A stretch of DNA of 64,000 nt from Candidatus Peregrinibacteria bacterium (GCA_018654255.1 JABILX010000001.1:209695-273694), one strand, 5' to 3'; positions 9,054 through 61,218 are shown, counted from the stretch's first letter. Made by a program: numbers and translations. Notes: generated by a model not told the origin, from the sequence alone.

Positions 9054-9085
9054 CAAAAAAACCGCCCCAAAAAAATAGGGGCGGT
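9054..9085 (-). terminator. rho-independent terminator after pilin 9098..9628
   Basis: The minus strand reads ACCGCCCC-TATTTTTTT-GGGGCGGT followed by a T-run. Confidence 0.6.
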
Positions 9086-9097
9086 TTAAACAAAAAA

Positions 9098-9628
9098 TTA
9101 TTTTGAAGTAACTCCATAACAACAGTTGTCAAGAGCTTCACAAGCAGAAACATCGTCTTCGTTTATTTTTGGATCTTCAAACACAACATTGGCACATAAC
9201 ATATTTGCATTAGCCACCTTCTCAACTTTAGAAAAGATCCCATAGAGTTTTGTGGAATCAGCAGTTTTATAAATAGCAAAAGCATACTCACCAGCGCCAC
9301 AGCCACCAACAGTTTGGAGAGGGTCTGGGTCTCCAGGGATGGTTCCGCCACCAAAATATTCCTTGAAAGCCGTCAAAGCAGCAGGCAATGGTGATGAGAG
9401 ACACAAATTCTGCTGTGCAGCAAGTTTTGATAAACTTTTATTATCTAATCTTCCGGCCTCCATAGCTTGTACAGAATTACTCATATCCGCCTGCCTTGTA
9501 GCATCCCTCGCTTTCTCAGGCGCACCCATAATACTTGGCAAGAATACAACTGCCAAGATTCCAATGATCGTTATTACGATCAGGAGTTCTATTAGTGTGA
9601 ACCCCAGTTTACTGAACCGATTTCTCAT
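9098..9628 (-). CDS. type IV pilin-like protein (prepilin N-terminus)
   Basis: MRNRFSKLG/FTLIELLIVITIIGILA. 176 aa, C-terminal DNCCYGV motif shared with 8470..9000. Confidence 0.85.
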   Translation of the reverse strand: MRNRFSKLGFTLIELLIVITIIGILAVVFLPSIMGAPEKARDATRQADMSNSVQAMEAGRLDNKSLSKLAAQQNLCLSSPLPAALTAFKEYFGGGTIPGDPDPLQTVGGCGAGEYAFAIYKTADSTKLYGIFSKVEKVANANMLCANVVFEDPKINEDDVSACEALDNCCYGVTSK

Positions 9629-9717
9629 AGAAATAAGGTTAAAATATTTTGAATATATTAATAAGGTGAGGACCTTAACTAAAAGTATACATTTCAGAAC
9701 AAAAACCGCAAGGAAAA

Positions 9718-11016
9718 TTACATAGATATGTCCGACAACTGCATGATAGGCAACATCACAGCTGCCACGATCACACCCACAGAAACACCGATAAAAACCA
9801 AAATCATAGGCTCAAGGATTTTAGCGAGCCCATTGACAGTATCACTAACATTGTCCTCATAATAAGCCGCGACCTTTATCATAATCTCATCCAACTGTGC
9901 AGTCTTTTCTCCAACTTCAACCATATTAACCAACATAGGAGGGAACAACTTGCTATCCGACAAATTCTCCGCAAGAGGGATACCTTGCTTGATATCCTCA
10001 GAAGCCAGCATTATTCTCCTTTTATAAACTTCATTACCAATTGAATTAGCAGTGATCTCCATAGTCTTCACGACAGGAACACCACTACTCATCAAATTAG
10101 AAAGCGATCTCGCAAACCTAGCAAGGTAAGTCATCTGAAACAATTTTCCAAAAACCGGAGCCCCCAATTTAATTTTATCAATTATATATTTACCCTGCGG
10201 CCTTTTACTTCCAATCACCATGAACATAGCCAATATAATCAGCCCGATAAATAAATAAACTCCATACTCTATCAAAAAATCACTTATCCCAACGACGATC
10301 CTAGTAACGAGCGGTAGTTCAGCCGCTTGCCTTTCAAACAATTGCGACAACTTCGGAATGATGAAAACCATCATCACAATAAGCACAACAATCAAAAGCA
10401 CAATAATCGCAATCGGATACATCAACGCACTTTTTATTTTGTGTTTAATATCCTGGCGTCTCGCGATATCGACCGCCAAATTATCCAAAGTTTGATTCAA
10501 TTGTCCGGCAGCTTCACCAGACTCAATCATCCCAATTTCCATGTCAGAAAACTCTTTGTCATGAAAAGTCATCGCCTCAGAAAGACTCTTACCTTCCTCG
10601 ACTTTTTCCTGCAGATCTTTAATAATAATAAAAAGATGTGACTTCGCACTAACTTGTCCCATCAAAGATTTCAAAGATTTAATAACAGACACTCCTGCAT
10701 TAATCATAACAGACAAAAGGTGAAAAAAGTTAGCTTTCTCATCATCATCAATACCAGAATGTGAAAGCATATAACCATTCAATTTTTTGAACCATCTTGC
10801 CAAGAAAAACCCCTGATTATCAAACTCATACGTATTCTCTCCTCCTAGAAATTTCTTTCCTTTTTCACTAATAACCACACTGTCATCATCGATATTCAAA
10901 ACAATAGGGGGCTTGCCAGTTTTCCTAGACTTTGCCGGTCCATTTGCTTGTTTATTTTTTCCTAATTTGAAGATTTCTTTACCAGCGAATTCGAAACCTT
11001 TAGCTTGTTTCGGCAT
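9718..11016 (-). CDS. pilC: type IV pilus assembly platform protein PilC (GspF/T2SSF family)
   Basis: 432 aa polytopic membrane protein with two T2SSF-like halves. It overlaps the pilB stop by 17 nt. Confidence 0.85.
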   Translation of the reverse strand: MPKQAKGFEFAGKEIFKLGKNKQANGPAKSRKTGKPPIVLNIDDDSVVISEKGKKFLGGENTYEFDNQGFFLARWFKKLNGYMLSHSGIDDDEKANFFHLLSVMINAGVSVIKSLKSLMGQVSAKSHLFIIIKDLQEKVEEGKSLSEAMTFHDKEFSDMEIGMIESGEAAGQLNQTLDNLAVDIARRQDIKHKIKSALMYPIAIIVLLIVVLIVMMVFIIPKLSQLFERQAAELPLVTRIVVGISDFLIEYGVYLFIGLIILAMFMVIGSKRPQGKYIIDKIKLGAPVFGKLFQMTYLARFARSLSNLMSSGVPVVKTMEITANSIGNEVYKRRIMLASEDIKQGIPLAENLSDSKLFPPMLVNMVEVGEKTAQLDEIMIKVAAYYEDNVSDTVNGLAKILEPMILVFIGVSVGVIVAAVMLPIMQLSDISM

Positions 11017-37529: not shown

Positions 37530-38396
37530 CTAAAACCCGCCCTCTTCAAAAACCTTTCTGAAATACCATTTTATCAAATCCCAATTTCCATCAGCAGGAA
37601 CTAATGTGTAAGCTTGAAGTTTATTTTCACAATCAGGTCGTGGGGAATCGGCCAGAGGAACTCCAACACCAGAATCACCCACAGAAACTTCCTCGACACT
37701 AACACTAGCGGTCCACTCATCAATCATCTTCGTGCATTCCTCCTTGGCTATATATTCTGGTACAGACAAAATATTTCCAGTCGACAAAACATATCCAGAA
37801 TTGATATCAAAATTTTGATATTTGAAGTAGTAGGCCATCGCCTCAGAAATAGAAATATCAGTTTCAGTCTTATTCAACACAGTCCGAATGATGTCATACA
37901 AAGTTCCAGCATCTCCAAACCCAAACTCACGAGCCTTTTTTTGAATAGCCCCCAGGATCATGTGCTGCCTCTCTGCGCGAGCAAAATCAGAACTAGTGTG
38001 ACGAGAACGCGCAAGACGCAAAGACTCCTTACCCATCAGATGATAATCCCCAGGGGCATAGTTCAGCGTGCCCCAAACACCATTGTCCAAAGTCTTGTAA
38101 GTTGGATCAATCACAGCACTGTCCAGATGAACATCAATTCCACCAATAATATCAACCACATCTATGAAAGCGTACATATCGATCAGAATATATTTATCCA
38201 ATTCATATCCAGTAATTTCTCCCAAAACTCTTTTGAATTCCTCCATCCCAAAATTCATCACATAATGATTGATTTTCCGGCCGTTATAATACAGGTCACG
38301 TGGAATAGAAATCATATCGACTGTGCGATCATTCTCATCAATATGAGCAAAAATCATAGTATCAATTAGGCTCCCATGTTTCCCTGCAATTAACAC
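37530..38396 (-). CDS. LytR-CpsA-Psr (LCP) domain ORF with no start of its own; probably expressed as a frameshift fusion with 38459..39748
   Basis: DTMIFAHID....MISIPRDLYY LCP core. The first strand FNVLIAG begins upstream of the annotated GTG. The frame is open to 38531 with no ATG, GTG or TTG. Confidence 0.6.
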   Translation of the reverse strand: MLIAGKHGSLIDTMIFAHIDENDRTVDMISIPRDLYYNGRKINHYVMNFGMEEFKRVLGEITGYELDKYILIDMYAFIDVVDIIGGIDVHLDSAVIDPTYKTLDNGVWGTLNYAPGDYHLMGKESLRLARSRHTSSDFARAERQHMILGAIQKKAREFGFGDAGTLYDIIRTVLNKTETDISISEAMAYYFKYQNFDINSGYVLSTGNILSVPEYIAKEECTKMIDEWTASVSVEEVSVGDSGVGVPLADSPRPDCENKLQAYTLVPADGNWDLIKWYFRKVFEEGGF

Positions 38397-38458
38397 ATTG
38401 AAGGTTCCCTCCTGATGAGAAGGCGTGTCTGAGAAGGCAGGAACGCTAGAAGGTAAAT

Positions 38459-39748
38459 TTAAAGTTTTTTTTTGAGCCCTTCTTCGAAGAAAAGCAAATT
38501 CATCGTATCGGCCCCCTCTGGCCCAACAACCTCAACAAGCCCAGAGCTTTTTTCTATTACAATCGACCCAAGCAAAACCCCACTCGCATCTCCATAAAAA
38601 ATATCATAATAAAATCTGTATTCATCTTCACGAGCCAAATTGTTAACATACAAAGAATTCTCTTCCAAAAGCAATTTGAATCCATTGTCTTCAAAAGTCT
38701 CTGCTAGCACCAATTGCGCTTCGATTATATTTTTCTGCACAGCAGGTAAAACATCTAATTTTTCGATAAAAGGCGGTAGAGAAGTCGCAAGGTCAGTGAC
38801 TTGCAAAACAATATTTTCATCATCCCTAGAATCATGCAGCGTGATAGAAAAATCTTCCAAACTCAAGATAACCTGAGCCACAACCTCGGTCGCTATATTC
38901 TGAATATCAAATGTCAAAGCCGAATCAGTTTGAGTAGGCTCGGCAACAAAAGTTAATTGTTCAGCAGCAAGCAGATCAACCATCTCCTGCTTAACAAAAG
39001 ACTCAACGATATAAATATTTGAAGCTTCAATCTTTTTGATATTAGTCAAAATAGTACTCAGATTATCACGAAGATAAATCAAGACATCGCCAGCAAACTC
39101 ATCAGTATCAGTTGATACAACAGACGTCGAGTCAGAAGCAGCCTCAAGAACCATATCTCCAGTCTCCTTATTGAGAGTAAAACTCAAAACCTTGCCAACT
39201 TCGCTGTCCATAATTTCCAAATAATAATTTTCTGCTTTATCAGAAATTTGGCCAAGAATAAGGCCCTTATCTTCCAAGAAATAAGAAAGTTCAGAGTTAG
39301 AAGCCAAGCCTCCCAAGAAAGCATAATTCTTATCAAAAGCTGCTTTTTTGCGTTCAATGTCTCCTAGATACCCAACATATTTGAAGAGGGAAATTTGCAA
39401 TTCATTTTCATTCTCATCACTAACAGAAGGACTCTCGTTAGAATCAGATGAAGACGAATACTGGCGAGTTGGAAGAAGTAAATAACCTCTCACTTCATTC
39501 AAATCCTCACCAATCATCTGAGAAACCTCAGTCAGCTTCCCAACTTCATCAACCAAACTAGAACCTCTCAAAGACAAACTAGTTAACCCACCGGTCATTC
39601 GAGCAACCTGGAAATATTGGATGAGAAAAAACGCAACAATAACACCAATAATTATGTTTTTCCTGGTTAAATGGGGCTGCCAGTTCTCTGGTACCTTATT
39701 TTTTGCCCCCGTGGTCAATTTCGAAATTTGCTTTTTAATTTTCTTCAC
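38459..39748 (-). CDS. membrane-anchored extracytoplasmic protein (likely N-terminal part of the LCP protein)
   Basis: 429 aa with N-terminal TM IIIGVIVAFFLIQYF. It ends ...GLKKKL* across an A9 tract (plus-strand T9 at 38465-38473). Confidence 0.65.
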   Translation of the reverse strand: MKKIKKQISKLTTGAKNKVPENWQPHLTRKNIIIGVIVAFFLIQYFQVARMTGGLTSLSLRGSSLVDEVGKLTEVSQMIGEDLNEVRGYLLLPTRQYSSSSDSNESPSVSDENENELQISLFKYVGYLGDIERKKAAFDKNYAFLGGLASNSELSYFLEDKGLILGQISDKAENYYLEIMDSEVGKVLSFTLNKETGDMVLEAASDSTSVVSTDTDEFAGDVLIYLRDNLSTILTNIKKIEASNIYIVESFVKQEMVDLLAAEQLTFVAEPTQTDSALTFDIQNIATEVVAQVILSLEDFSITLHDSRDDENIVLQVTDLATSLPPFIEKLDVLPAVQKNIIEAQLVLAETFEDNGFKLLLEENSLYVNNLAREDEYRFYYDIFYGDASGVLLGSIVIEKSSGLVEVVGPEGADTMNLLFFEEGLKKKL

Positions 39749-39858
39749 CAGAGAATCTTATAAAAAATCTTGTCTTTATGCAAATTTTTGTATAGAATCC
39801 CGTTTGCATCGTGACTGATTTATTCAATCACTCATATGCAAAGTTTCATTGAAAACTA

Positions 39859-39933
39859 GCGGGTGTCGTATAAAGGCTATTACCACAGCCTTCCAAGCTG
39901 TTGATACGGGTTCGATTCCCGTCACCCGCTCCA
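39859..39933 (+). tRNA. tRNA-Gly (anticodon UCC), CCA encoded
   Basis: Acceptor GCGGGTG/CACCCGC. Anticodon arm ACAGC-CTTCCAA-GCTGT. T-arm ACGGG-TTCGATT-CCCGT. 75 nt. Confidence 0.9.
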
Positions 39934-39941
39934 ATCTTTTT

Positions 39942-39966
39942 ACAGGTTCAATTCGCCCCACCCCAC
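39942..39966 (+). repeat. decayed copy of the tRNA-Gly 3-prime half
   Basis: ACAGGTTCAATTCGCCCCACCCCAC versus tRNA ACGGGTTCGATTCCCGTCACCCGC, about 20 of 25 positions matching. Confidence 0.6.
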
Positions 39967-39970
39967 GAGG

Positions 39971-39990
39971 AGGTTCGAACTAGAATTCAA
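39971..39990 (+). repeat. GTTCGAAC-core element, upstream type
   Basis: AGGTTCGAACTAGAATTCAA, closely similar to 40916-40935 (AGGTTCGAACTGGATTTCAC). Confidence 0.55.
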
Positions 39991-39999
39991 ACAGGAGGG

Positions 40000-40028
40000 T
40001 TGACTTCAGGGGGGGGGTATGTTATAAT
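40000..40028 (+). promoter_or_regulatory. promoter TTGACT-N17-TATAAT with a G9 tract in the spacer
   Basis: ttgacttcagggggggggtatgttataat, with the G-run at 40009-40017. Confidence 0.5.
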
Positions 40029-40065
40029 TACAGTGTTGGTCAAATAAAAAATAACCAAAACAAAA

Positions 40066-40599
40066 ATGGAAAACCTAAGGAATGATCCTCCAAAAGATCC
40101 TCCAAAAGATCCAAAGAAAAAACCAGATAACGTTGAAGACTATCCATACATAATCACAGGGACTGGTATTCAGAGAAAGGAACTTCAGGAGTCGGTTGGT
40201 AAGCCAAAACATGTGCCGGAAAAGAAATCCTGGAAAGTTAAAGAAGTTGGAGAAATTACACCAGAGGTTGCTGCGTTAGAGGATAAACTAGTGAAAGAAG
40301 AGTATAATAAGTGGGCCGCTGATCCAGAATCACTCAAAAATACAAGATTGGTTTTTGGACCTGATGCCAAAATCCTGCCATATGAAAAATGGATCTCATC
40401 CCAAAGAATGTCGCAATTAAAATTCGAACCCGAAAATGAAGGGGTTGAGGATGCAGAAGAAGACCAATTACCCAAAAATTACTTGAGAGTGGAATATCAG
40501 TCTTACTACGGAGAAAAGAAGAAGATCAATGAAACTCCAGATAGTTATTTTGAATGGCTGAAAGCAAGGGAACGAAAACTGGGAACTTCAGAAGAATAA
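40066..40599 (+). CDS. hypothetical protein (177 aa, charged, no TM)
   Basis: Clean ORF with a promoter upstream, a repeat element and a hairpin downstream. Confidence 0.6.
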   Translation: MENLRNDPPKDPPKDPKKKPDNVEDYPYIITGTGIQRKELQESVGKPKHVPEKKSWKVKEVGEITPEVAALEDKLVKEEYNKWAADPESLKNTRLVFGPDAKILPYEKWISSQRMSQLKFEPENEGVEDAEEDQLPKNYLRVEYQSYYGEKKKINETPDSYFEWLKARERKLGTSEE

Positions 40600-40609
40600 T
40601 TTTCATAAA

Positions 40610-40640
40610 CAGTTCGAACGTCCTCCACGCTGCGGCTCCA
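40610..40640 (+). repeat. post-ORF element CAGTTCGAAC...GGCTCCA
   Basis: CAGTTCGAACGTCCTCCACGCTGCGGCTCCA, starting 11 nt after the stop. Confidence 0.55.
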
Positions 40641-40642
40641 TG

Positions 40643-40677
40643 AAAAAATCACCCCGCCGCAAGGTGGGTTATTTTTT
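40643..40677 (+). terminator. imperfect hairpin flanked by A- and T-runs
   Basis: aaaaaatcaccccgccgcaaggtgggttattttttt. Confidence 0.4.
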
Positions 40678-40704
40678 TATCTAGGGGTCGGCAGAAACGA
40701 AGCC

Positions 40705-40788
40705 TCGGGTGAGAATTCCCGTTGCTTGAATATGCGTATGAGTGAAACGAATCGGATAGTCAAGTACGACGAAGTGCACCCGCTCCAA
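40705..40788 (+). repeat. decayed tRNA-Gly 3-prime region (T-arm-like hairpin, about 53-nt insert, exact acceptor end)
   Basis: TCGGGTGAGAATTCCCGT resembles the T-arm. CACCCGCTCCAAT at 40776-40788 is identical to 39923-39935. Confidence 0.55.
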
Positions 40789-40915
40789 TGAAGACCTCCA
40801 GGAACACTCAAACCTCCTTTTCCCGCTACACCAAGCCAAGAACTCGGTTCTAACCATAATTTTAGTTAAATTACTCTGATTTAACTTTTACTAAACCTTC
40901 CATTCCTATGAACAA

Positions 40916-40935
40916 AGGTTCGAACTGGATTTCAC
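40916..40935 (+). repeat. GTTCGAAC-core element, upstream type
   Basis: AGGTTCGAACTGGATTTCAC. Confidence 0.5.
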
Positions 40936-41018
40936 AATTAATAAAGTGAATCGGTCACTGTAAGATCATAGCTTTTACACACAAAATACGGTATAATTAA
41001 CAGATAAACAAAAACAAA

Positions 41019-42122
41019 ATGACAGACCCAGAAGACACAGAAAAAGACGGACCGCAAGAAGTCCGACAAGAAAACGAACTTCCAGAAGCTCCTCTTTACG
41101 GAGATAAAAGAATCGTACAAACAGTTAATGCCACAAGAAAATCTCTATCACTTTCTCTTTCAGGAACAGAAGAAGTAGAAGAAAGGGATACAGAGAAAGT
41201 TTTCAGAATAAACGAAAGAATAATAACGAACATGATAGTAGATAGTTCAAATACGATAAAATCTTTCCAAATCACAGTAACAACAGAACAAGGTCACAAA
41301 ACAATAAATCTAATGGGTTATATCCCACAAAATATAAAAATAGAACTAGCCATTGGGCCCCACTTTATTCCAGAAGGGAAAGATGGCAGAAAGACAATTC
41401 AAATATCAGAATTAGATTTGAAACACATCCCAGAAAAAGGTCTGATAAGTGCCTTCCACGAAATAGGACATGCAATAGACGAAGCAAAACACCCAGAAAA
41501 GTATCCAAAAGATAACGATAGAACATTGCAAATAATCGAAGCAGGAGAAAAAGGCGCGAACGAGGAAATGTCAAAAATGCTAGACCAAATAAGAGAGGAA
41601 GAAGAAGTTGAAATAATCCCAAAAGTTCGATTAGAATCTCTAAACAAACTTCAGCTTCTATCATGCCAAGTAGACAGTATTTTTAGAGACAAACATCCAG
41701 AAAAACCCAATTTTCTCCCACTCCAATACGACGAAGCCCAATGGGAAAGAAGATTTAATATACACAAAGAAACCAGGGAAGAATTAAATGTGCAAATAAG
41801 AGCTTCAGCAGATTCGTTGTTCTCAAGACTAGGAGAAAAAGGCGTGAACAACTTAACCGCAAATGAAATCCTGCAAATTCTGAAAGAAGAATTCCCAAGC
41901 ATTTACATTGAAGAAGCAATATTTTTCAACGATTTAGAATCATTTGCAGTACAAATATTTTTAGCAAGATTCAACCCAAAAACAGGTAAAAGTAGAATGA
42001 AAAAATCATTTCAAAGAAAACTTAGTCGGATAATGTTGGATGAAGAACTAGGATTGATAAACTATGTCGCGCATCAAAAACTTTTAACAGACGAATACAG
42101 AGCTGAAGCAAAAGTCTTCTGA
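41019..42122 (+). CDS. hypothetical protein with HExxH motif (AFHEIGHAIDE)
   Basis: 367 aa with no TM or signal peptide. The zinc-metallopeptidase-like motif is the only recognisable feature. Confidence 0.6.
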   Translation: MTDPEDTEKDGPQEVRQENELPEAPLYGDKRIVQTVNATRKSLSLSLSGTEEVEERDTEKVFRINERIITNMIVDSSNTIKSFQITVTTEQGHKTINLMGYIPQNIKIELAIGPHFIPEGKDGRKTIQISELDLKHIPEKGLISAFHEIGHAIDEAKHPEKYPKDNDRTLQIIEAGEKGANEEMSKMLDQIREEEEVEIIPKVRLESLNKLQLLSCQVDSIFRDKHPEKPNFLPLQYDEAQWERRFNIHKETREELNVQIRASADSLFSRLGEKGVNNLTANEILQILKEEFPSIYIEEAIFFNDLESFAVQIFLARFNPKTGKSRMKKSFQRKLSRIMLDEELGLINYVAHQKLLTDEYRAEAKVF

Positions 42123-42127
42123 TTTTC

Positions 42128-42155
42128 CAGTTCGAACATCCTCTTTTGCCAGGGT
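42128..42155 (+). repeat. post-ORF element CAGTTCGAACATCCTC...
   Basis: Starts 6 nt after the stop. Confidence 0.5.
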
Positions 42156-42220
42156 TTTATACTTTACAATTATCTTAATATGGCATATACTCAAAACAGA
42201 GCTAAACCATATTAAGCCCC

Positions 42221-43168
42221 ATGACGTATTTACCTGAAAATCTTCGGAAACAAATAGAGAAAAAACTCAAGAAACTAAACAAGCTTCGTCCGCTACCGAA
42301 AACAGCTGTAGCAAAACTTCGCGAGCAATTTGAGCTGGAGATGACGTATAACTCCAACGCAATTGAGGGGAATTCCCTTACTCTTAAAGAAACATTCTGG
42401 GTTGTTAAGGAAGGGCTAACAATCAAAGGGAAACCTCTAAAAGATCATCTGGAGGCAACCAATCACCAGGATGCTCTGGAGTATCTATACGAGCTGGTCG
42501 AGCACGAGAAAAAAGCTACAATCTCTGAGTTTTTAATAAGAAATATTCATCAACTTATAACTCAAAACATTGAAAAAGAATGGGCTGGTAAATACAGAAC
42601 AATGCCAGTAATGATTACGGGGACCAAGCACATGCCACCGAGCGCTGGAGAGGTCCCAAGTCTAATGCACCAGCTCATTGAATGGCTAAACAGAGAGGGC
42701 AAAAAGATGCCCATAATCGAAACCGCCTCCATACTCCATCACAAATTTGTACACATCCACCCATTTCTAGATGGGAATGGGCGTACAGGACGTCTTGTCA
42801 TGAATTTGTTGCTATTAAAAGCCGGTTACCCATTGGTAATTATTTTAAAAAATGATCGCAAGAAGTATTACAAAGCATTAAGAGAAGCAGATGAAGGAAA
42901 TTATGCCCCATTAGTTTTATTGATTGCACAATCAATTGACCGTTCTTTAACCATTTATTTAAAGACATTAACACCTGACAGGAAGGAAGACAGAAAAAAA
43001 TATATGTCATTGGCAGAGGCGAGCCAGATTTGTAGGTATTCTGCAAAATATTTAAACTTACTTGCGAGACAAGGTAAATTGGAAGCTTACAAAGAAGGTC
43101 GAAATTGGGTGACCACCAAAGAATCCATAGAGAAATACATCAAAGAAAGGGAAAGAAAACGAAAGTAA
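42221..43168 (+). CDS. Fic-domain protein with C-terminal excisionase-type HTH
   Basis: Fic motif HPFLDGNGRTGR. N-terminal SNAIEG inhibitory-helix motif. C-terminus MSLAEASQICRYSAKYLNLLARQGKLEAYKEGRNW. Confidence 0.85.
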   Translation: MTYLPENLRKQIEKKLKKLNKLRPLPKTAVAKLREQFELEMTYNSNAIEGNSLTLKETFWVVKEGLTIKGKPLKDHLEATNHQDALEYLYELVEHEKKATISEFLIRNIHQLITQNIEKEWAGKYRTMPVMITGTKHMPPSAGEVPSLMHQLIEWLNREGKKMPIIETASILHHKFVHIHPFLDGNGRTGRLVMNLLLLKAGYPLVIILKNDRKKYYKALREADEGNYAPLVLLIAQSIDRSLTIYLKTLTPDRKEDRKKYMSLAEASQICRYSAKYLNLLARQGKLEAYKEGRNWVTTKESIEKYIKERERKRK

Positions 43169-43184
43169 TACTATGAGACACCCC

Positions 43185-43216
43185 CAGTCCGAACATCCTT
43201 TAGCGGTGGAGCTCCA
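43185..43216 (+). repeat. post-ORF element CAGTCCGAAC...GGAGCTCCA
   Basis: CAGTCCGAACATCCTTTAGCGGTGGAGCTCCA. Confidence 0.55.
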
Positions 43217-43276
43217 AGAGTATAACCTATAGAAAAGAAGGTTTTTTGTAGGTTTACGAAAACATTGACAAAAACC

Positions 43277-43305
43277 TTTACAATTAATTGAGGTAGGGAT
43301 ATAAT
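43277..43305 (+). promoter_or_regulatory. promoter TTTACA-N17-TATAAT, leaderless geometry
   Basis: The -10 box ends 6 nt before ATG 43312. Confidence 0.5.
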
Positions 43306-43311
43306 GAAAAC

Positions 43312-44331
43312 ATGTTTAATCCAAAATATAAACTATCGGCTACTCTTCTTAAGGCTATTACAGAATGTGAGCGCTTATATGGGCAGATTGAATCATTAAA
43401 GATTCCTCATGAAATTGAACTTAATCTTGAAAGGAGTAATGAAATCAATTCTTCTTACTTTTCCAATAGTATTGAAGGGAATCCACTTTCTCTACCGGAA
43501 GTAACTAACTTGCTCTTAGACGAAAGGGTTCCAGCAAACAGAGATGAAAAGGAAATAGTTAATTATTTTAAAATTCTTAGAACTCTCCAAAAACATACTG
43601 AGGGTCAATTAACTTTACAAAAAGTCTTACAAATCCATAAAGAATTAATGTCAGGTGTGAATGATAAAATAGCTGGAGATATAAGAAATAAAACTATCGT
43701 TGTGGGGAAATATAAAAACAATAGCGGAAAAGTTGAACTTGAAATAAAGCATAATCCTCCAACCCATAAAAAAAAGGAGATTGAGCAGTTATTAAACAAA
43801 TTGATAGAATGGATAAACAAGAGCAAGGATCCGATTTTAATTAAAGCCGGAGTATTCCATCATGAATTTGTACGTATACATCCATTTGAAGATGGGAATG
43901 GACGTACTTGTCGATTGTTAACCGCATTACTCTTTATCAAAGAGGAGTACTTTATAAATAAATATTTCGTACTTGATGATTATTATGATGTGGATAGACC
44001 AGCTTATTCAGATGCTCTCCATTCCGCAGATAAAGGCAACAAAACAGAGTGGTTGGAATATTTCAGTATAGGGTGCAAATATTCACTCCAAAGCGCATTA
44101 GCTAGAGTTAAAAATGCATTAAAAACACTAAAAATAAGTGAAAGACCTACCAATAGAGAACAAGATGTAATCGATATATTGCAACAATATAAAGAAGTTA
44201 CATCCTCTGATGTAGCGAAGAATCTCAGTATTTCAAGACAGCAAGCTCATAATTTACTCAAAGGATTGAAAAACAAAGGTTTAATTGAAAAAAAAGGAAC
44301 TACAAAATCAAGTTATTATAGATTGAAATAG
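43312..44331 (+). CDS. Fic-domain protein with C-terminal winged-helix domain
   Basis: HPFEDGNGRTCR. N-terminal SNSIEG motif. C-terminal DVAKNLSISRQQAHNLLKGLKNKGLIEKKG. Confidence 0.85.
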   Translation: MFNPKYKLSATLLKAITECERLYGQIESLKIPHEIELNLERSNEINSSYFSNSIEGNPLSLPEVTNLLLDERVPANRDEKEIVNYFKILRTLQKHTEGQLTLQKVLQIHKELMSGVNDKIAGDIRNKTIVVGKYKNNSGKVELEIKHNPPTHKKKEIEQLLNKLIEWINKSKDPILIKAGVFHHEFVRIHPFEDGNGRTCRLLTALLFIKEEYFINKYFVLDDYYDVDRPAYSDALHSADKGNKTEWLEYFSIGCKYSLQSALARVKNALKTLKISERPTNREQDVIDILQQYKEVTSSDVAKNLSISRQQAHNLLKGLKNKGLIEKKGTTKSSYYRLK

Positions 44332-44388
44332 AGATCCAAGCAGAAAAACACCCAGAATCAGGACTTATTCCATTCCCCAAGCCAACAA

Positions 44389-44422
44389 TACAGGTTCGAT
44401 TAGCATCCAGCCAGGAGCTCCA
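44389..44422 (+). repeat. tRNA-T-arm-like / GGAGCTCCA element
   Basis: TACAGGTTCGATTAGCATCCAGCCAGGAGCTCCA. ACAGGTTCGATT matches the tRNA-Gly ACGGGTTCGATT. Confidence 0.5.
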
Positions 44423-44483
44423 CAAAGATTCCCATTGAGAAGCCAGAGATGAAAGGGTATCCTCTTTGCATCAAATTTATTGA

Positions 44484-46262
44484 ATGAATTTTATGGCGAC
44501 CTTGTTGCAAATTAATGGATTATCCAAGTCCTACGGGGCACAAACAATCTTAGAGGATGCTGGATTGGTTATTAATGAAAGGCAAAAAATTGGTGTGATT
44601 GGCAGGAATGGGGCGGGTAAGTCGACTTTATTTAAAATAATTGTTGGAAATGAAGAACTTGATGAAGGAACAGTTAATGTGCACGAAGGCACGAGAATTG
44701 GCTATTTAACCCAACATAGTGAATACGAAGAAGACGAAAGTGTAATTGATTATTTGATGAGATCTAGTGGAAAGAAAGATTGGGAATGCGGGAAAATGGC
44801 AGGAAGCTTTCAAATAAAAGGAGAGCAGTTAGATGCGAAAGTAGTTTCGCTAGCAGGTGGATATCAAATGAGGGTTAAGTTGATTGCAACACTTCTAAAG
44901 GATCCAAATTTACTGCTTTTGGACGAGCCTACTAATTACTTGGATCTATCTACTCAGCTTTTGTTGGAACATTTTTTGAGAAATTATAAGGGAAGTGTTT
45001 TGCTAATTTCCCACGATCGCGAGTTTATCAAGAGAACATGCAATGAAACTGTAGAAATCGAGCATGGAAAGATAACCTTGTATCCACGTTCCATAGAAGA
45101 ATATCTAGTATACAAAGAAGAACAATTGTCGAGGATAGAGGGTCTTAATATAAAGACAGAACAAAAGAAGAAACATTTGCAGAGCTTTGTTGATAGGTTT
45201 GGGGCAAAGGCCAGTAAAGCATCTCAAGCTCAGTCCAAAATGAAACAAATTGAAAAGCTGAAGACGATTGAAGTGAATCATCCTCTGAGTACAACAACGA
45301 TAGTGATTCCACCTGCGGAAGATAAAAAGGGGATTGCTTTGAAAACAGAAAATTTGGAAATTGGCTATAGTGATAAATCGATAGCCCAGGAAATCAACCT
45401 GGAGATAGAAAGAGGCCAAAAAATCGCAGTACTAGGGGATAACGGCCAGGGAAAAACGACTTTATTGAAAACTCTTGCCGGAGAAATCGACAAACTTTCC
45501 GGAAATTACAAATGGGGGCACAATATTAAAATTGCTTATTATGCGCAGCATATACCCGCAACATTAAATTCCAATGAAACGGTAAAAGCCTACCTGAAAA
45601 GGATAGCTCCACCCGACATTTCAGAGCAGGACATTTTCAAAATGGCAGGAAATTTTCTGTTCAAAGATGAAGCGTTGAAAAAAAAGCTTCCCGTATTGAG
45701 TGGAGGCGAGAAGGCTAGGCTTTGTTTAGCAAAAATATTATTACAAAAAAATCAGGTGATTTTACTTGATGAGCCGACCAATCATTTGGATTTTGAAACT
45801 GTCGAGGCACTGGCGCAAGCGTTGAGAGATTCCAATGTGACAATAATATTTGTGAGTCATAATCGTACATTTGTGGAGATTGTGGCCAACGGTATTGTTG
45901 AAGTGAAAAATGCGAGGGTTACGCGCTACCATCATAATTACGAAGAATATGTCTATCATCTGCAAAAAAATATTGAGGAAGATCTGGGCATAATTGAGGA
46001 ACCACCTTTGAATTTAGAAAAGGAGGAGAGGAAGGCCTTGATAAAGAAGGTAAAGGAAGTGAAAAAACGATTAAAATATTTAGAAAAGGAGATCATTGGT
46101 TTAGAAGAAGAAAAAACGATTTTATTGGAGTGGTTTGAAGAAAATCCCACAGAGTATTCTGAGGAAAAAACCAAACGTTTAGCAGAAATTGAAAAGAAAA
46201 TAATTGAAAAGGAACAAGAGTGGATGGAGGCAGAGATTGATCTTGAGGTAAAGCAGGGCTGA
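44484..46262 (+). CDS. ABC-F family ATPase (two ABC cassettes, no TM domain)
   Basis: GRNGAGKST and GDNGQGKTT Walker A motifs. LSGGEKARL signature. Charged C-terminal extension. Confidence 0.85.
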   Translation: MNFMATLLQINGLSKSYGAQTILEDAGLVINERQKIGVIGRNGAGKSTLFKIIVGNEELDEGTVNVHEGTRIGYLTQHSEYEEDESVIDYLMRSSGKKDWECGKMAGSFQIKGEQLDAKVVSLAGGYQMRVKLIATLLKDPNLLLLDEPTNYLDLSTQLLLEHFLRNYKGSVLLISHDREFIKRTCNETVEIEHGKITLYPRSIEEYLVYKEEQLSRIEGLNIKTEQKKKHLQSFVDRFGAKASKASQAQSKMKQIEKLKTIEVNHPLSTTTIVIPPAEDKKGIALKTENLEIGYSDKSIAQEINLEIERGQKIAVLGDNGQGKTTLLKTLAGEIDKLSGNYKWGHNIKIAYYAQHIPATLNSNETVKAYLKRIAPPDISEQDIFKMAGNFLFKDEALKKKLPVLSGGEKARLCLAKILLQKNQVILLDEPTNHLDFETVEALAQALRDSNVTIIFVSHNRTFVEIVANGIVEVKNARVTRYHHNYEEYVYHLQKNIEEDLGIIEEPPLNLEKEERKALIKKVKEVKKRLKYLEKEIIGLEEEKTILLEWFEENPTEYSEEKTKRLAEIEKKIIEKEQEWMEAEIDLEVKQG

Positions 46263-46286
46263 CATCGTCCAAATAAAGGAGCTCCA
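46263..46286 (+). repeat. degenerate post-ORF element ending in GGAGCTCCA
   Basis: CATCGTCCAAATAAAGGAGCTCCA, immediately after the stop. Confidence 0.45.
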
Positions 46287-46333
46287 AAACTTCCACTTCC
46301 TTTTTTTCGCAAAAAAAGTAAAGTGTTCACAAC

Positions 46334-47515
46334 ATGGAATACAAAATAGACAAAATACTTTTAAATAAAATAACAGGGATCCCCATATTTTTTCTCATAA
46401 TATGGTTCATATTCCAAGCAGTTTTCACAATAGGGCAGATTCCCATGGACCTCATCGACGCAAGCATTTCAAACCTGCAAAATTGGCTCACAACAATCCT
46501 GCCTGCGAGCTTCTGGAGTTCACTTTTGATAGATGGTGTAATAGGGGGCGTCGGAGCGATGGTCGTATTCCTTCCATTAATAATAATTTTATTCTTTTTC
46601 ATATCAATTCTTCGGCAAAGCGGATACTTGGATCGTACTGCCTTCCTTTTTGAAAAAAGTTTACGGAAAATAGGCTTGAGTGGGAAAGCGATAGTTCCTC
46701 TATCTATGGGATTCGGCTGCAACGTCCCCGCGATAATGGCTCTAAAGACCCTGGAAACAAGAAGACAAAGAATCATAACAGCAATGATGATCCCATTCCT
46801 GAGTTGTAGTGCAACCCTACCTATTTACACACTTCTCATCGCGGCTTTTTTTGAAGAACGATGGAGAGGAACAATATTATTCGCACTATATGCATCAGGA
46901 ATAATTCTCTCATTCCTCACAGGATTAATCTTCCATAAATTCTTGAAGACAGAAAGGATTACAAGTCTCTCAGTCCTACCAAAATACAAAATTCCCAAAC
47001 TCAAAAACATCATTGTCTCAATTTGGGGAACAACAAAATCATTTCTAACCAAAGCCGGCAAAATAATTCTTCCTTTCTCAATAATCATGTGGCTTTTATT
47101 CACATTCCCGCAGGTGGAAGGGGTGCCTCCACAAATAGAAGACTCTTACGCCGCACAAATAGGCATGGCAGTCGAGCCGATCTTTGAACCAATCGGATTC
47201 GACTGGAGGATAAACACGGCATTGTTTGGAGCATTAGGCGCAAAAGAAATATTCATTTCAACTCTTGGGATTTTCTATTCATTGGAAACAAACACAGACG
47301 ATGGATTGATACAGGCATTGCAAAACGATCCCAATATCACCTCTTTGACTGCGGTCCTCATTTTGATATTCATGCTCATATATTCCCCGTGCATACCTGT
47401 CATAGCAACAATAAAACAGCAATTTAACACGAGGTGGTCAGTCATAGCATTTGCATACCCAACAATCCTTGCGTGGTTGGTATGTTTTGTGATTTATCAG
47501 GTTGCGACATTGTGA
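46334..47515 (+). CDS. FeoB-like membrane (gate) domain protein lacking the N-terminal GTPase domain
   Basis: The GFGCNVPAIMA motif and polytopic layout match the FeoB C-terminal region. The ORF begins at the first TM segment and no G1-G4 motifs are present. Confidence 0.65.
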   Translation: MEYKIDKILLNKITGIPIFFLIIWFIFQAVFTIGQIPMDLIDASISNLQNWLTTILPASFWSSLLIDGVIGGVGAMVVFLPLIIILFFFISILRQSGYLDRTAFLFEKSLRKIGLSGKAIVPLSMGFGCNVPAIMALKTLETRRQRIITAMMIPFLSCSATLPIYTLLIAAFFEERWRGTILFALYASGIILSFLTGLIFHKFLKTERITSLSVLPKYKIPKLKNIIVSIWGTTKSFLTKAGKIILPFSIIMWLLFTFPQVEGVPPQIEDSYAAQIGMAVEPIFEPIGFDWRINTALFGALGAKEIFISTLGIFYSLETNTDDGLIQALQNDPNITSLTAVLILIFMLIYSPCIPVIATIKQQFNTRWSVIAFAYPTILAWLVCFVIYQVATL

Positions 47516-47573
47516 AGCTCACATTTGCGAATATCCTTGCCCCAACACCGTCCAACAAAGGTATAATATCAAC

Positions 47574-48755
47574 ATGCGCACGTTGCACTCAAAAATAGAA
47601 GCAAACATCAAAAAGTTGTATCTTCACAACTTCTTTTTCGAAATGATGTTTTTCATTCCTATTTTAGTGCCTTTCTGGAGTGGTCTTGGGTTTTCTATGC
47701 AAGAAATATTATTGCTAGAGGCAGGGTTCGCCATGACATTGATGATACTGGAAATCCCATCAGGCTATTTTGCAGATATGTATGGAAGGAAAACAAGCAT
47801 GATGATTGGAGCAGTCCTAGAATTTATTGGGCTCTTGATATTCATTTTCGCAGGTAGTTTCGCGGGGTTTTTACTAGGAGAAATTGTAATAGGAATCGGA
47901 GCAAGTTTCCAATCTGGTGCAAATGAAGCATTAATGTATGACTCTTTGGTACAGCTTAAAAGAGAAAAAGAGTATAAGAAAAAACAAGGAAACTATTATT
48001 TTGCAGGGAGAATGTCTGCAGTGCTATCAAAAATACCTGGAGCACTTTTTGCTGGGATTTTCATTAAACTGCCATTCTATCTAACAATGATCCCGTGGTT
48101 TATTGCAGTAATAGTTGTGTTTAGTCTCGTAGAACCAACCATAAAGAGACAAAAATTTGAAACATGGAAGCATTTCACAAGCATATGCAAAGAAGCTTTA
48201 TTCAAGAATAAAAAATTACAAAGTTTACTTCTATACGGAGCAATCCCTCCAGGATTCTTTCTAATAACTTTCTGGTTATATCAAAAATATATGGAGACTA
48301 CACAAGTACCAATTATTTTCTTTGGCATAATTATTTCTCTCATGAACCTGACTTCTGGATTAGGGGGGAAATATGCAAAAGAAATTGAAGAAAAAATTAC
48401 ACCCAAATTAACAATCATATTAATTCCAATTACAGCAGCGTTAGTATGGGCATCACTAGCAATCTTCAGTAGTCCATATTTGATTTGGATTTTTGCAGTA
48501 GCAGCTTTTGTATGGGGCCTTCACTTGCCAATCACACAAGACTACATCCAAAAAATCACCACAAGCGACAAAAGAGCCACAATTTTATCAATTAGAAGTT
48601 TCCTAACAAGAGTTGTGTACGTAATCTTTGCCCCATTGCTAGGATGGGTGACCGACTGTTATTCAATCCAAAGCGCCTTCGGTTTTTCTGCAGGCCTCAT
48701 AATACTTTTTGGAGGAATAAGCCTCCTCCTATTGAAAAGGGGCCGTGTGATCTAA
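47574..48755 (+). CDS. MFS transporter
   Basis: About 12 TM helices. I chose ATG 47574 because TATAAT at 47562-47567 gives the same 12-nt leaderless geometry. The track start 47502 (GTG) overlaps the previous gene. Confidence 0.7.
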   Translation: MRTLHSKIEANIKKLYLHNFFFEMMFFIPILVPFWSGLGFSMQEILLLEAGFAMTLMILEIPSGYFADMYGRKTSMMIGAVLEFIGLLIFIFAGSFAGFLLGEIVIGIGASFQSGANEALMYDSLVQLKREKEYKKKQGNYYFAGRMSAVLSKIPGALFAGIFIKLPFYLTMIPWFIAVIVVFSLVEPTIKRQKFETWKHFTSICKEALFKNKKLQSLLLYGAIPPGFFLITFWLYQKYMETTQVPIIFFGIIISLMNLTSGLGGKYAKEIEEKITPKLTIILIPITAALVWASLAIFSSPYLIWIFAVAAFVWGLHLPITQDYIQKITTSDKRATILSIRSFLTRVVYVIFAPLLGWVTDCYSIQSAFGFSAGLIILFGGISLLLLKRGRVI

Positions 48756-48760
48756 ATCAC

Positions 48761-48786
48761 ACGGTTCAAACATCCTCTAGCGGAGC
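48761..48786 (+). repeat. post-ORF element ACGGTTCAAACATCCTCTAGCGGAGC
   Basis: Starts 6 nt after the MFS stop. It matches the consensus CAGTTCGAACATCCTCTAGCGG. Confidence 0.5.
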
Positions 48787-48788
48787 AA

Positions 48789-49457
48789 CTACTTCTTAGC
48801 CGCTGCTTTCTTCTTAGCCGGTGCTTTTTTCTTCGCAGGAGCCTTCTTTACAGCCGCCTTCTTAGCAACCGCTTTCTTCTTTGGCTCAGCCGTTTTCTTC
48901 TCAGCAGGGGCTTTTTTCACAACCTCTTTTTTCTTTGGTGCATCTGCCTTCTCAGGACTCAGGCGCTGTAAAAGAAATATAATTTTATCTAACTTAGCAT
49001 TCATATCGTCACCGCCCTTGTTAGATTTAGCAGGTTTTCTTGGACCTGAATCATTTCCTTTTTCAAAACAACTACTGCAATAAACAGGTTTGTCTCCACT
49101 TGGTCTGAAAGGAACCTCACAACCATTACCACAATCAGCACAAGTTGCTCTGTGCATAGTTGGGCGTCCTCGGTCATTGCCACCTCGTCCACCTCCACGA
49201 CTGTCTCGTCCGCCTCCACGACTGTCTCGTCCACCTCCACGACTATCTCGTCCACGGTCATTGCCACTGAAGTCATCATCTCTTTTGAAACAACTACTGC
49301 AATAAACAGGTTTGTCTCCACTTGGTCTGAAAGGAACCTCACAACTATTGCCGCAATCAGCACAAGTTGCTCTGTGCATAGTTGGGCGTCCTCGGTCATT
49401 GCCACCTCGTCCACCTCCACGACTATCTCGTCCTCCTCCTCTGTTGAAATCTCCCAT
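48789..49457 (-). CDS. RGG-repeat / double CxxC-x17-CxxC zinc-ribbon protein with histone-H1-like Lys/Ala tail
   Basis: The module RPTMHRATCADCGN.CEVPFRPSGDKPVYCSSCF occurs twice. RDSRGGG repeats. C-terminal KKAVAKKAAVKKAPAKKKAPAKKKAAAKK. Confidence 0.75.
   Translation of the reverse strand: MGDFNRGGGRDSRGGGRGGNDRGRPTMHRATCADCGNSCEVPFRPSGDKPVYCSSCFKRDDDFSGNDRGRDSRGGGRDSRGGGRDSRGGGRGGNDRGRPTMHRATCADCGNGCEVPFRPSGDKPVYCSSCFEKGNDSGPRKPAKSNKGGDDMNAKLDKIIFLLQRLSPEKADAPKKKEVVKKAPAEKKTAEPKKKAVAKKAAVKKAPAKKKAPAKKKAAAKK
49066..49433. repeat. intragenic 222-nt-period duplication (146-nt cores 49066-49211 and 49288-49433, 4 mismatches) plus 3 x 21-nt tandem repeat 49192-49254
   Basis: Direct comparison of the two segments. 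Confidence 0.85.
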
Positions 49458-49567
49458 ATTATTATTGTTATTATTATTAATACGTTACAGAAAAAGACTC
49501 TAGCCTTATTACTCCTGAAACACAAGGAGGAATGAGCAATTTTGGAATTTCAGTTAAACAGGCTCTT

Positions 49568-50074
49568 CTAAGCTGTCGTTTCTTCTTCAGCACCTCTTTC
49601 CATAAGCTCTCTATCAAGCATATAAAGTCCAGGACCTTTTTCACCAGCGATTTTCAGCCGTTCAATGACATCTGAAGCACTAGCTTCCTCTTCAACCTGC
49701 TCATCGATGAACCATTTTAGAAACGATTGCAGAGCATAATCCTTTTCCTCCAACGCCAACTCATACAAACCATTGATCAAAGAAGTGACATGTTTCTCAT
49801 GCTCCAATGCTTTCTCGAAAATATCCAAAGCCGAAGCAAAGTCAGAAGGTGGTTGGTCAATTTTGTCCAAAACAACAGAACCATCACGCTCATAAACGTA
49901 ATCATAAATTTTGAAAGCATGAACCATCTCTTCCTCAGCTTGTTTTTTCATCCAGTGTGCAAAGCCATTCAAACCTTTGCCATCAAAATAAGTAGCCATC
50001 GAAAGATACAAGTAAGCTGAATACATCTCAGCATTGATTTGCTCATTTAGAGCTTTTTCTACATTTTTTTTCAT
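49568..50074 (-). CDS. ftn: ferritin (non-haem, bacterial type)
   Basis: EQINAEMYSAYLYLSMATYF ... EEMVHA ... EHEKHVT ferroxidase-centre pattern. Confidence 0.85.
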   Translation of the reverse strand: MKKNVEKALNEQINAEMYSAYLYLSMATYFDGKGLNGFAHWMKKQAEEEMVHAFKIYDYVYERDGSVVLDKIDQPPSDFASALDIFEKALEHEKHVTSLINGLYELALEEKDYALQSFLKWFIDEQVEEEASASDVIERLKIAGEKGPGLYMLDRELMERGAEEETTA

Positions 50075-60796: not shown

Positions 60797-60930
60797 TGGG
60801 TGAGATGGTATAATATAAACGGTATAAATCTTAGTTGATTGAATACCAGTGGTGGAGCTGTAAAATTAAAAGGTATCAACTCTCGGAAAGAGACTGCCGA
60901 GTAAAAAACCCCGCATTGCGCGGGGTTTTT
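60786..60930 (+). ncRNA. candidate ~110-nt small RNA (promoter to terminator)
   Basis: TTGAGA-N17-TATAAT (60786-60814, with TG at 60806-60807). Terminator at 60903-60930. No ORF lies between them. Confidence 0.3.
60903..60930. terminator. bidirectional rho-independent terminator
   Basis: aaaaaaCCCCGCattgcGCGGGGttttt, with an A-run and a T-run on either side. Confidence 0.7.
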
Positions 60931-60942
60931 AGTTGTCAATAA

Positions 60943-61016
60943 GTGGTGGAACCGTCGGGAATCGAACCTGGACCCGGAGAGGTATTAACTCTCGGGGCAG
61001 ACCACTGCCAACCCCA
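60943..61016 (-). other. tRNA-like / tmRNA-3-prime-like fragment ending ...GGTTCGATTCCCGACGGTTCCACCA
   Basis: The minus strand has a T-loop GGTTCGATT and terminal CCACCA, followed by the terminator. I could not fold a canonical cloverleaf: the T-stem is imperfect and the acceptor would need four G-U pairs. A second partial copy ends ACAGCTCCACCA at 60852-60863. Confidence 0.3.
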
Positions 61017-61218
61017 CATTATTGACGCATAAAAATTAGCATTCGAAACTTACAAACTTCTCAATTTAAACTTAAATTTTTCTTAAAAAAACATTACATA
61101 ATCATTACCTCCAGCTCTCAACCCCAAACTACCCCAATAATTTGACATACAACTTACGAAAAGAGAAAATAACCTCCAAACAAAATTTATCAAACAAAAA
61201 CCTTAACCCTTCTTCCCA

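Follow-up and report, generated by a model that had tools for sequence, protein, structure and literature searches.

What gathers seven accessory genes behind a single tRNA gene when no recombinase lies nearby is the question raised by a locus in a genome of Candidatus Peregrinibacteria bacterium (GCA_018654255.1, JABILX010000001.1:209695-273694; this whole 64-kb stretch of DNA is referred to below as the window). The island in question spans 8.9 kb downstream of tRNA-Gly(TCC), the sole tRNA of the window according to ARAGORN and Rfam, and all seven of its genes lie on the + strand. A sequence-only reading had described it as a stack of small modules left behind by repeated integration at the tRNA 3' end, with decayed tRNA ends as scars, accessory cargo and no integrase. 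The account of the cargo proved sound: Pfam and calls of open reading frames (ORFs) agree on an orphan (ORF1), an HExxH-type protein (HEIGH), two Fic proteins, an ABC-F ATPase, a FeoB_C-type permease and an MFS transporter, all on the + strand, and Pfam, profile searches and tblastn were all empty for an integrase in the window. The scars turned out to be something else. The answer favoured here is that the island is probably a cassette array: small gene units that site-specific recombination has added at the 3' end of tRNA-Gly (GCTCCA), with the enzyme acting in trans. The evidence that carries this answer is a family of short sites, E1, together with its linkage to tRNA-Gly, the turnover of cargo between relatives and the sequence breakpoints at GCTCCA.

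The E1 site family and its linkage to tRNA-Gly

Each of the six gene or operon units in the island (modules 1 to 6) is closed by a copy of E1, a conserved site of ~33 nt with the consensus AACAGTTCTAACATCCTCCAATGTGGAGCTCCA, taken from a model built without the window copies. E1 and tRNA-Gly have in common the terminal GCTCCA and the T-loop-like GTTCNAAC; more specifically, E1 resembles the T-loop-to-CCA stretch of the tRNA, with a distance from GTTCGA to GCTCCA that is 5 nt longer (offset counted by eye). Over both strands of the 64 kb, the model's six highest-ranking matches fall on the unit ends, all on the + strand; four are significant and two marginal, and E1 was not found with this model in the other 55 kb of the window. 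Words resembling CAGTTCGAACATCCTC lie just 3' of stop codons (six matches in the window with at most three mismatches, against 0.67 expected), and GGAGCTCCA follows ~7 nt after each. The tRNA and the six copies are placed as follows.

39859-39933, + strand: tRNA-Gly(TCC), CCA encoded; ARAGORN and Rfam agree
39928-39933, + strand: GCTCCA, final six bases of tRNA-Gly, proposed crossover core
40608-40641, + strand: E1 copy 1, AACAGTTCGAACGTCCTCCACGCTGCGGCTCCA, right end of module 1 (E=7.3e-6)
42128-42156, + strand: E1 copy 2, left half intact with CAGTTCGAACATCCTC exact, right half decayed (E=0.0095)
43185-43217, + strand: E1 copy 3 (E=1.5e-5)
44392-44422, + strand: E1 copy 4, of a GGTTCGATTAGC subtype shared with loci L152 and L164 of other genomes (E=3.8e-4)
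46262-46287, + strand: E1 copy 5, right two-thirds only, ATCGTCCAAATAAAGGAGCTCCA, overlapping the ABC-F stop codon (E=0.07, fifth-best)
48762-48793, + strand: E1 copy 6, left half intact, GCTCCA decayed, end of the array (E=0.12, sixth-best)

Judged by their sequence, these repeats are a family in their own right and not decaying tRNA ends, as the sequence-only reading had supposed. The Rfam tRNA model finds no tRNA pseudogene among them at E up to 10 (38000-50000), and over the whole window at gathering score it returns the real tRNA only. In plain local alignment to the tRNA 3' half the copy at 44390 alone is individually significant, and for this reason the description as decayed tRNA copies was dropped. 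That copy, the T-arm-like ACAGGTTCGATT, had been singled out before and is indeed the best non-self match (score 29, 0.4 expected per strand). A further supposed 3' half at 39942-39966 is a look-alike, identical at 19 of 25 positions (by eye), and it falls within a separate element, E2, which is described below.

A degenerate E1 pattern run over metagenomes gave 34 further loci, and a hidden Markov model then brought the family to ~65 copies, spread over 38 loci outside the window; viral contigs gave no match to the pattern. The tRNA is in view at 19 of these loci, and in all 19 it is tRNA-Gly, upstream of E1 and on the same strand. The anticodons of these array tRNAs are TCC, GCC and CCC, to which a UCA tRNA labelled SeC by ARAGORN is to be added. 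Several loci hold three to five E1 copies ~1 kb apart, with a median spacing of 1093 bp (39 intervals, 30 loci), and the units contain one or two ORFs each, which may point either way; E1 is always oriented like the tRNA, whatever strand the enclosed ORFs take. Of 36 enclosed ORFs that were scanned, 4 are Fic genes, the remaining cargo being mixed (ORF6N, GNAT, kinase, radical SAM) or unknown, and no recombinase is among the cargo matches listed (25 of 28 matched families). A homologue of the first Fic protein of the window (Fic1, 68%) is found in the L152 array and one of the second (Fic2, 69%) between two E1 sites in L140, in both cases with different neighbours. E1 itself is nearly identical across organisms whose flanking proteins are only ~50% identical.

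In three E1-bearing loci (L135, L136 and L161) the ORFs are all short under the standard code, and the UCA tRNA is found in L135. For L135 this suggests an organism that reads UGA as glycine, and all three loci would agree with lineages of this kind, to which the E1 family seems to extend.

The orientation of the enclosed genes bears on whether E1 acts at the level of RNA, as a tRNA-like transcript tail for processing, stabilisation or termination, the array then being a set of genes that share a signal. Such a role would agree with the window, where every E1 starts no more than 60 nt beyond a + strand gene's stop codon, has the tRNA-like terminus GCUCCA and sometimes has a terminator behind it. 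However, ORFs elsewhere lie on either strand while E1 keeps the tRNA orientation, so that E1 is often outside the sense transcript, and on these data its role as a signal of the 3' untranslated region was rejected. The confinement of E1 to the island within the window, the lack of a tRNA-like fold (no Rfam tRNA match, and T-stem pairing absent by inspection) and the breakpoints at GCTCCA in direct and inverted repeats, which are a signature of DNA rearrangement, point the same way and leave an RNA-level signal highly improbable.

Cargo turnover and breakpoints at GCTCCA

Species-representative genomes were scanned with the last 30 nt of the tRNA, which gave 105 loci. Thirteen of the 105 are syntenic upstream (Peregrinibacteria or Peribacteria), sharing a left block of CCA-adding enzyme, PrsW, LytR and a 429-aa protein, and the DNA after the tRNA differs in every one of them. 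In L133 the tRNA is followed directly by the zinc-finger gene found at the far end of the window's island, and in L037 directly by a Fic gene whose product is a 57% homologue of Fic1. Downstream of its tRNA, L035 carries a phage ORF6N gene with ABC-F behind it, L115 carries other genes over 5.6 kb, and L042 carries a large serine recombinase and defence genes. The closest of the syntenic relatives, L090, has tRNA/E2, an unrelated 252-aa ORF and then E1/E2, while L146 has three cassettes, none related to those of the window; both are ~50% identical to the window in the 429-aa flank and keep the frame of tRNA/E2 and E1 around unrelated cargo. Little or nothing is inserted at the tRNA in L133, L041 and L115. 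The comparison of module presence and absence that the sequence-only reading had proposed therefore came out in its favour, with different cargo or none in the same frame.

How such frames are joined can be followed in the elements around module 1.

39935-39991, + strand: E2, right-arm element after the CCA, TTACAGGTTCAATTCG...ACCCC...GGAGGTTCGAACTAGAATTC (E=9.7e-12 with a model from other genomes only)
40650-40679, + strand: intrinsic-terminator hairpin and T run, near-identical in L166
40683-40789, + strand: E3, conserved long hairpin CGTTGCTTGA...TCAAGTACGACG, with the end GTGCACCCGCTCCAAT
40830-40936, + strand: probable decayed E1/E2 composite, a weak match (E 0.3; read by eye), with GTTCTAAC at 40847 and GTTCGAAC at 40918, 71 nt apart (counted by eye)

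E2 is found after the tRNA in L090 and L146 as well, and after E1 in L090, L155 and L157, where E1/E2 composites stand between successive units. The terminator at 40650-40679 is of a type found directly after the tRNA in empty-site relatives: the tRNA is followed by terminator and E3 in L041 and L115, and E1 is followed by terminator and E3 in the window, L124 and L097. When the tRNA site and an E1 site of the same locus are compared, they are identical to the right of GCTCCA for 126 nt in L139, 102 nt in L149 and 39 nt in L156, and for 0 nt to its left in all three. In many independent loci, whether the repeats are direct or inverted, sequence identity stops exactly at GCTCCA. All of these junctions would be expected from one crossover at GCTCCA that joins a circle bearing E1/right-arm to a chromosome bearing tRNA/native-downstream. 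A transposon with inverted GTTCGAAC ends was also considered and rejected, as the empty site that it predicts is not seen in relatives and tRNA/terminator-E3 is. Imperfect hairpin folding is seen only for the E1/E2 composites (~85 nt; z-scores -0.3 to -2.6), and most E1 copies are without E2.

Parts of the sequence-only reading concern E3. The 13-mer CACCCGCTCCAAT at 39923-39935 does recur exactly, at 40777-40789 (one base off from the 40776-40788 reported), and with at most two mismatches it has six matches against 0.94 expected, a number that none of 100 shuffles reached. The hairpin-like TCGGGTGAGAATTCCCGT at 40705-40722 is likewise present, as a part of E3. The pair of 13-mers was taken for the attL and attR of the first unit, however, and the second 13-mer is the 3' end of E3, which in relatives comes directly after tRNA and terminator (L041, L115); the ORF1 unit ends at E1 (40608-40641) and thus measures ~710 bp in place of the ~850 bp assigned to it. 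The core idea of that reading, tRNA-linked stacks of small cassette-like modules plausibly serviced in trans, holds without its tRNA-decay and attL/attR parts.

The E3 hairpin ends in GTGCACCCGCTCCA, and its last 24 nt keep the tRNA spacing. It occurs also in L041, L115 and L124 (nhmmer E 1e-24 to 1e-32) and in part in L097, and in a set of four sequences 7 of 19 pairs show compensatory changes, with both bases altered and pairing kept; no Rfam family matches it. E3 may function as a small RNA or, alternatively, as a secondary attachment site. A second type of E3 is present in L146 (6600-6765) and in L155, and the equivalent of E3 in L146 and L037 resembles the 3' half of a tRNA whose T-loop carries ~95 nt of inserted sequence.

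Under the mechanism proposed here, every site would consist of a left arm that the enzyme recognises, followed by the core GCTCCA. That arm would be the T-loop-to-acceptor stretch of the tRNA itself or the 27-nt arm of E1 (GTTCNAAC, 13 nt, GAGC), and the sequence to the right of the core would simply be exchanged. A circular cassette with E1/right-arm would first recombine with tRNA/native-downstream; the product would be tRNA/right-arm, cargo and E1/native-downstream, and newer arrivals would then displace older cassettes outward. Module 1 fits this scheme exactly, as tRNA/E2, ORF1 and E1/terminator plus E3. The remaining five units lie behind E3, whose 3' end copies the tRNA end and may offer a second entry site.

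A candidate recombinase and the weight of the evidence

An enzyme for this reaction was sought with a large serine recombinase (LSR) probe and with a tyrosine recombinase probe, XerD. No Pfam recombinase family is present among the window ORFs of at least 170 aa, tblastn with both probes found no fragments in the window DNA, and a profile search with the tyrosine probe, made over the window and locus ORFs of at least 80 aa, found nothing in the window. In the fetched loci, whose ORFs were searched by profile with the LSR probe as well, the sole serine recombinase is that of L042, and tyrosine recombinases occur only in unrelated Proteobacteria and Acidobacteria. Thus the earlier statement that a recombinase is absent was correct for the vicinity of the array and incomplete beyond it, since a candidate LSR family abuts tRNA-Gly in relatives.

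The L042 recombinase has 523 aa and the domains Resolvase, Recombinase and Zn_ribbon_recom, and the tRNA-Gly 3' end contains its stop codon. Its family numbers at least 7887 members at E up to 1e-30; the best 120 of these have identities of 50-93%, many of them being assigned by name to Peregrinibacteria, Gracilibacteria, Paceibacterota or Parcubacteria. Six genomic contexts were examined (L168-L173, with recombinases P0001, P0002, P0005, P0008, P0012 and P0020). In all five homologues of at least 75% identity the gene ends inside tRNA-Gly (TCC or GCC), and in the sixth (69%) inside tRNA-Gln. Exact inverted repeats of 59-92 nt (62-92 nt in the tRNA-Gly cases) bracket the recombinase gene in six of six contexts, starting exactly at GCTCCA, or at CAGCCA in the tRNA-Gln case; the core changes with the target tRNA. 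An E1-like arm of the same spacing (GTYCKAAC, 13 nt, SAGCTCCA) stands in front of the distal repeat copy. A model of the six recombinase-adjacent sites matches array-type E1 in seven loci (E 0.004-0.08); its only other matches in ~1 Mb are the recombinase-adjacent sites themselves and an additional one of that kind in L172.

At its 3' end, ~25 codons of the recombinase gene fall within one copy of the inverted repeat. The bracketing suggests an invertible gene or an unusual element structure. L172 also holds, at 5991-9757, a 3.7-kb segment of small ORFs between inverted repeats of at least 120 nt (length by eye), each ending at E1...GCTCC, one copy of which abuts a tRNA-Gln gene; this may be an invertible cargo segment. 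When the full site is considered as a symmetric serine-integrase attP, its arms are weakly symmetric and its right half-sites are not conserved. An offset between the half-sites of attP and attB, like the 5 nt of E1, has been reported for serine integrases.

The intact element of L042, with recombinase and defence genes at this very tRNA, raises the question of whether the array is an ordinary tRNA-linked island, in which successive integrase-bearing elements have decayed to one or two cargo genes and worn attachment scars. L076 and L081 keep an apparent leftover of an arm of the L042 element after their tRNA, and the island of the window does lie directly after the tRNA 3' end, varies among relatives and has scars related to the tRNA end. 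Stacking of this kind is described for the tycheposon islands of Prochlorococcus, where successive integrations displace older elements outward and leave partial tRNAs and fragmented integrases scattered (doi 10.1101/2020.12.28.424599). The scars at issue here, however, form a separate family of fixed length that is nearly identical where core proteins are ~50% identical, and neutral decay would not yield scars of that kind. No direct repeats copy the tRNA 3' end (tRNA and E1 share only GCTCCA, and the 13-mer copy lies in E3), and no integrase gene or fragment was found inside the island by Pfam, profile search or tblastn, the last of which was empty for the entire window. Unit sizes cluster near 1.1 kb (39 intervals, 30 loci), and 34 of 34 array loci are without a recombinase. 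An ordinary island worn down in this way is therefore unlikely.

For the cassette array favoured here, the best candidate for an enzyme acting in trans would be the LSR family that sits on tRNA-Gly 3' ends of related genomes, and the array is probably run by a serine recombinase encoded elsewhere. A broader form of this proposal can be put forward only tentatively: a gene-capture platform parallel to integrons, with the tRNA-Gly 3' end as the primary site, a 33-nt tRNA-mimicking site on each cassette and a conserved LSR, usually located at another tRNA-Gly, that inserts, excises and inverts cassettes in trans.

Two contigs of the same species differ from the window at the tRNA, which speaks for the cassette array. 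L007 is identical to the window for 3.5 kb and departs exactly after the tRNA CCA into a terminator. L010 is 100% identical for 1756 nt up to 39799 and ~12% diverged from 39800 (60 nt upstream) through the tRNA, and its terminal part is a terminator identical to that of L115, a distant relative; its appearance is that of a recombinant allele at the tRNA locus. The pattern in L010 suggests locus replacement and so speaks for an island exchanged by homologous recombination through its conserved flanks, E1 being then a protein-binding or regulatory motif with no role in recombination, for example for the helix-turn-helix (HTH) Fic proteins, whose genes recur in arrays. Most arrays, however, are without a Fic gene, the breakpoints fall exactly at GCTCCA in many independent loci, and there is a specific physical link to a recombinase family overlapping tRNA-Gly. 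Exchange through the flanks with E1 as a bystander is accordingly quite improbable.

Several observations weigh against the cassette array and its proposed enzyme. At least ten contigs of the same species, from several samples, carry the same six units in the same order, so that activity at strain level must be low or absent; the array in the window is more likely an old record than a busy one. What sets L007 apart from the window is confined to 32 nt of contig end past its tRNA; for L010 it is confined to the final ~165 nt, made up of ~134 nt of diverged tRNA region and 30 nt of contig end. E1 copies 5 and 6 are marginal (E 0.07 and 0.12). The ABC-F gene may be a resident and not cargo, as judged from 77-80% homologues near this tRNA in L035 and L115. 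None of the 34 array loci holds a recombinase detectable with the serine and tyrosine probes. In the direction from E1 to the recombinase-adjacent sites the similarity is moderate (E 0.09-2.5), and these sites are inverted relative to the tRNA while array copies are direct, an arrangement not derivable from one simple integration. Finally, a single insertion by a serine integrase yields a hybrid tRNA site that should refuse a second insertion without a helper, which leaves the stacking unexplained.

Cargo, neighbouring features and comparison with known systems

The genes of the island, its flanks and the promoter-like site of module 1 are as follows.

38459-39748, - strand: left flank, 429-aa membrane protein without Pfam family, in the block syntenic across all relatives
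40000-40028, + strand: promoter-like site of module 1, TTGACT, 17 nt, TATAAT (11/12)
40066-40599, + strand: module 1 cargo, 177-aa orphan
41019-42122, + strand: module 2 cargo, 367-aa protein with HEIGH at residue 147, without Pfam family
42221-43168, + strand: module 3 cargo (Fic1), Fic and HTH_17 (Pfam)
43312-44331, + strand: module 4 cargo (Fic2), Fic and winged HTH (Pfam)
44484-46262, + strand: module 5, ABC-F ATPase (Pfam)
46334-48755, + strand: module 6, Gate/FeoB_C permease (46334-47515) and MFS transporter (47502-48755), overlapping genes
48789-49457, - strand: right flank, zf_Tbcl_2 zinc-finger protein, whose homologue in L133 stands directly after the tRNA

The permease of module 6 is without a G domain according to Pfam. 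Of the genes, several of which had been said to have promoter-like sequences of their own, ORF1, Fic1 (42163-42191, 10/12) and Fic2 (43277-43305, 11/12) are preceded by strong promoter-like sites; the total of such sites does not exceed that of shuffles. G+C content in the island is 0.34-0.39 against ~0.40-0.44 elsewhere, which is slightly lower and not diagnostic. The conserved 429-aa protein upstream was considered as a recombinase and rejected: no Pfam family matches it, its N-terminal part has the look of a membrane anchor, and it is found in array-free relatives too.

The zinc-finger gene contains a direct repeat of 167 nt (49051-49439, period 222 nt) that has one copy fewer in many same-species contigs, and other contigs show a 39-nt indel (48810-48849) in its Lys/Ala-rich tail; these variants are length polymorphism within the population. 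The equivalent of ABC-F is split into two ORFs (246 and 340 aa) in L001, L012 and L020 of sample ERZ4200993, by a frameshift or an assembly error. The remaining window is ordinary chromosome, with genes for ribosomal proteins L10 and L12, HisRS, TsaD, pilus and secretion functions and ATP synthase. At 2-8359 on the - strand a single stop-free frame of at least 2786 codons, a giant protein gene, leaves the window at its start, and because it runs off the window start the ORF list looks empty there. At 60944-61015 on the - strand, in the intergenic region 60797-61218, a tRNA-like 3' end GGTTCGATTCCCGACGGTTCCACCA is followed by a strong terminator and gives a weak match (9 bits, E 0.17) to the 3' part of the transfer-messenger RNA (tmRNA) model; the feature is probably a divergent tmRNA gene uncalled by ARAGORN and Rfam.

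Little is understood of how these bacteria, with their tiny genomes, acquire and rearrange accessory and defence genes. A conserved and easily searched 33-nt site at cassette boundaries downstream of tRNA-Gly would allow flexible gene pools to be mapped over thousands of metagenome-assembled genomes, and, if the proposal is true, short natural tRNA-targeting recombination sites might be of use in genome engineering.

Among known systems, tycheposons are alike in that their islands are seeded at tRNA genes, have older insertions displaced outward by newer ones, contain scattered tRNA-related repeats and carry adaptive or defensive cargo (doi 10.1101/2020.12.28.424599). They differ in having tyrosine recombinases, replication modules, true partial tRNAs and integrase fragments, whereas the array described here has ~1-kb units, no integrase debris and a distinct conserved repeat.

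Small site-bounded modules without a recombinase, moved by an enzyme encoded elsewhere, are also found as cis-mobilizable elements (CIMEs) and as pdif modules. CIMEs derive from decayed conjugative elements with tyrosine integrases, and pdif modules have 28-bp XerC/D sites of alternating orientation on plasmids; neither is known to be tied to tRNA-Gly or to form co-oriented arrays of this kind. An origin of the array in pdif/XerCD modules was rejected, as all E1 copies are direct and show no dif-like organisation, in contrast to the alternating 11-6-11 pdif sites. A miniature inverted-repeat transposable element or insertion sequence was rejected as well, given that the units are all different and that the predicted empty site with inverted motifs was not found in relatives.

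Elements with a large serine recombinase, such as phiC31, Bxb1, SCCmec and Tn4451, are single large insertions that carry their own enzyme. None is encoded in the window according to Pfam and tblastn, and one is present at the same tRNA in L042. The likeness to such elements lies in the candidate's Resolvase, Recombinase and Zn_ribbon_recom domains and in the shortness of the sites, and it may extend to the tiny shared core and to a putative half-site offset of 5 nt. We know of no description among them of stacked single-gene units without an enzyme, nor of inverted repeats of 60-90 nt that bracket the recombinase gene.

The closest parallel is with integrons and clusters of attC sites lacking integron integrases (CALINs). 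A co-oriented array of mostly single-gene cassettes with one site each is found here as there, with a fixed primary site at one end, turnover of cargo between relatives and arrays that are often without an adjacent recombinase. Integrons differ in their tyrosine recombinase of the IntI type, which was found by probe and Pfam neither in the window nor in any array locus, whereas the candidate here is a serine recombinase. The primary site of the array is the 3' end of a tRNA, and its cassettes have promoter-like sites of their own and lie in either orientation. E1 was rejected as an attC site, since it is a conserved sequence of 33 nt, in contrast to the imperfect inverted repeats of 57-141 nt, conserved in structure and with RYYYAAC...GTTRRRY ends, by which attC is defined.

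The array lacks at least one defining feature of each of these classes (integrons and CALINs, tycheposon islands, serine-integrase elements, and CIMEs and pdif modules) and is therefore taken as a member of none of them. A literature search, whose coverage left out most subscription journals, returned no description of such a system in these bacteria, and the array has the appearance of a means of acquiring accessory genes, comparable to integrons, that has not been described before. Should the serine recombinase linked to it indeed service the E1 sites, integron-like gene capture would have been invented a second time, independently.

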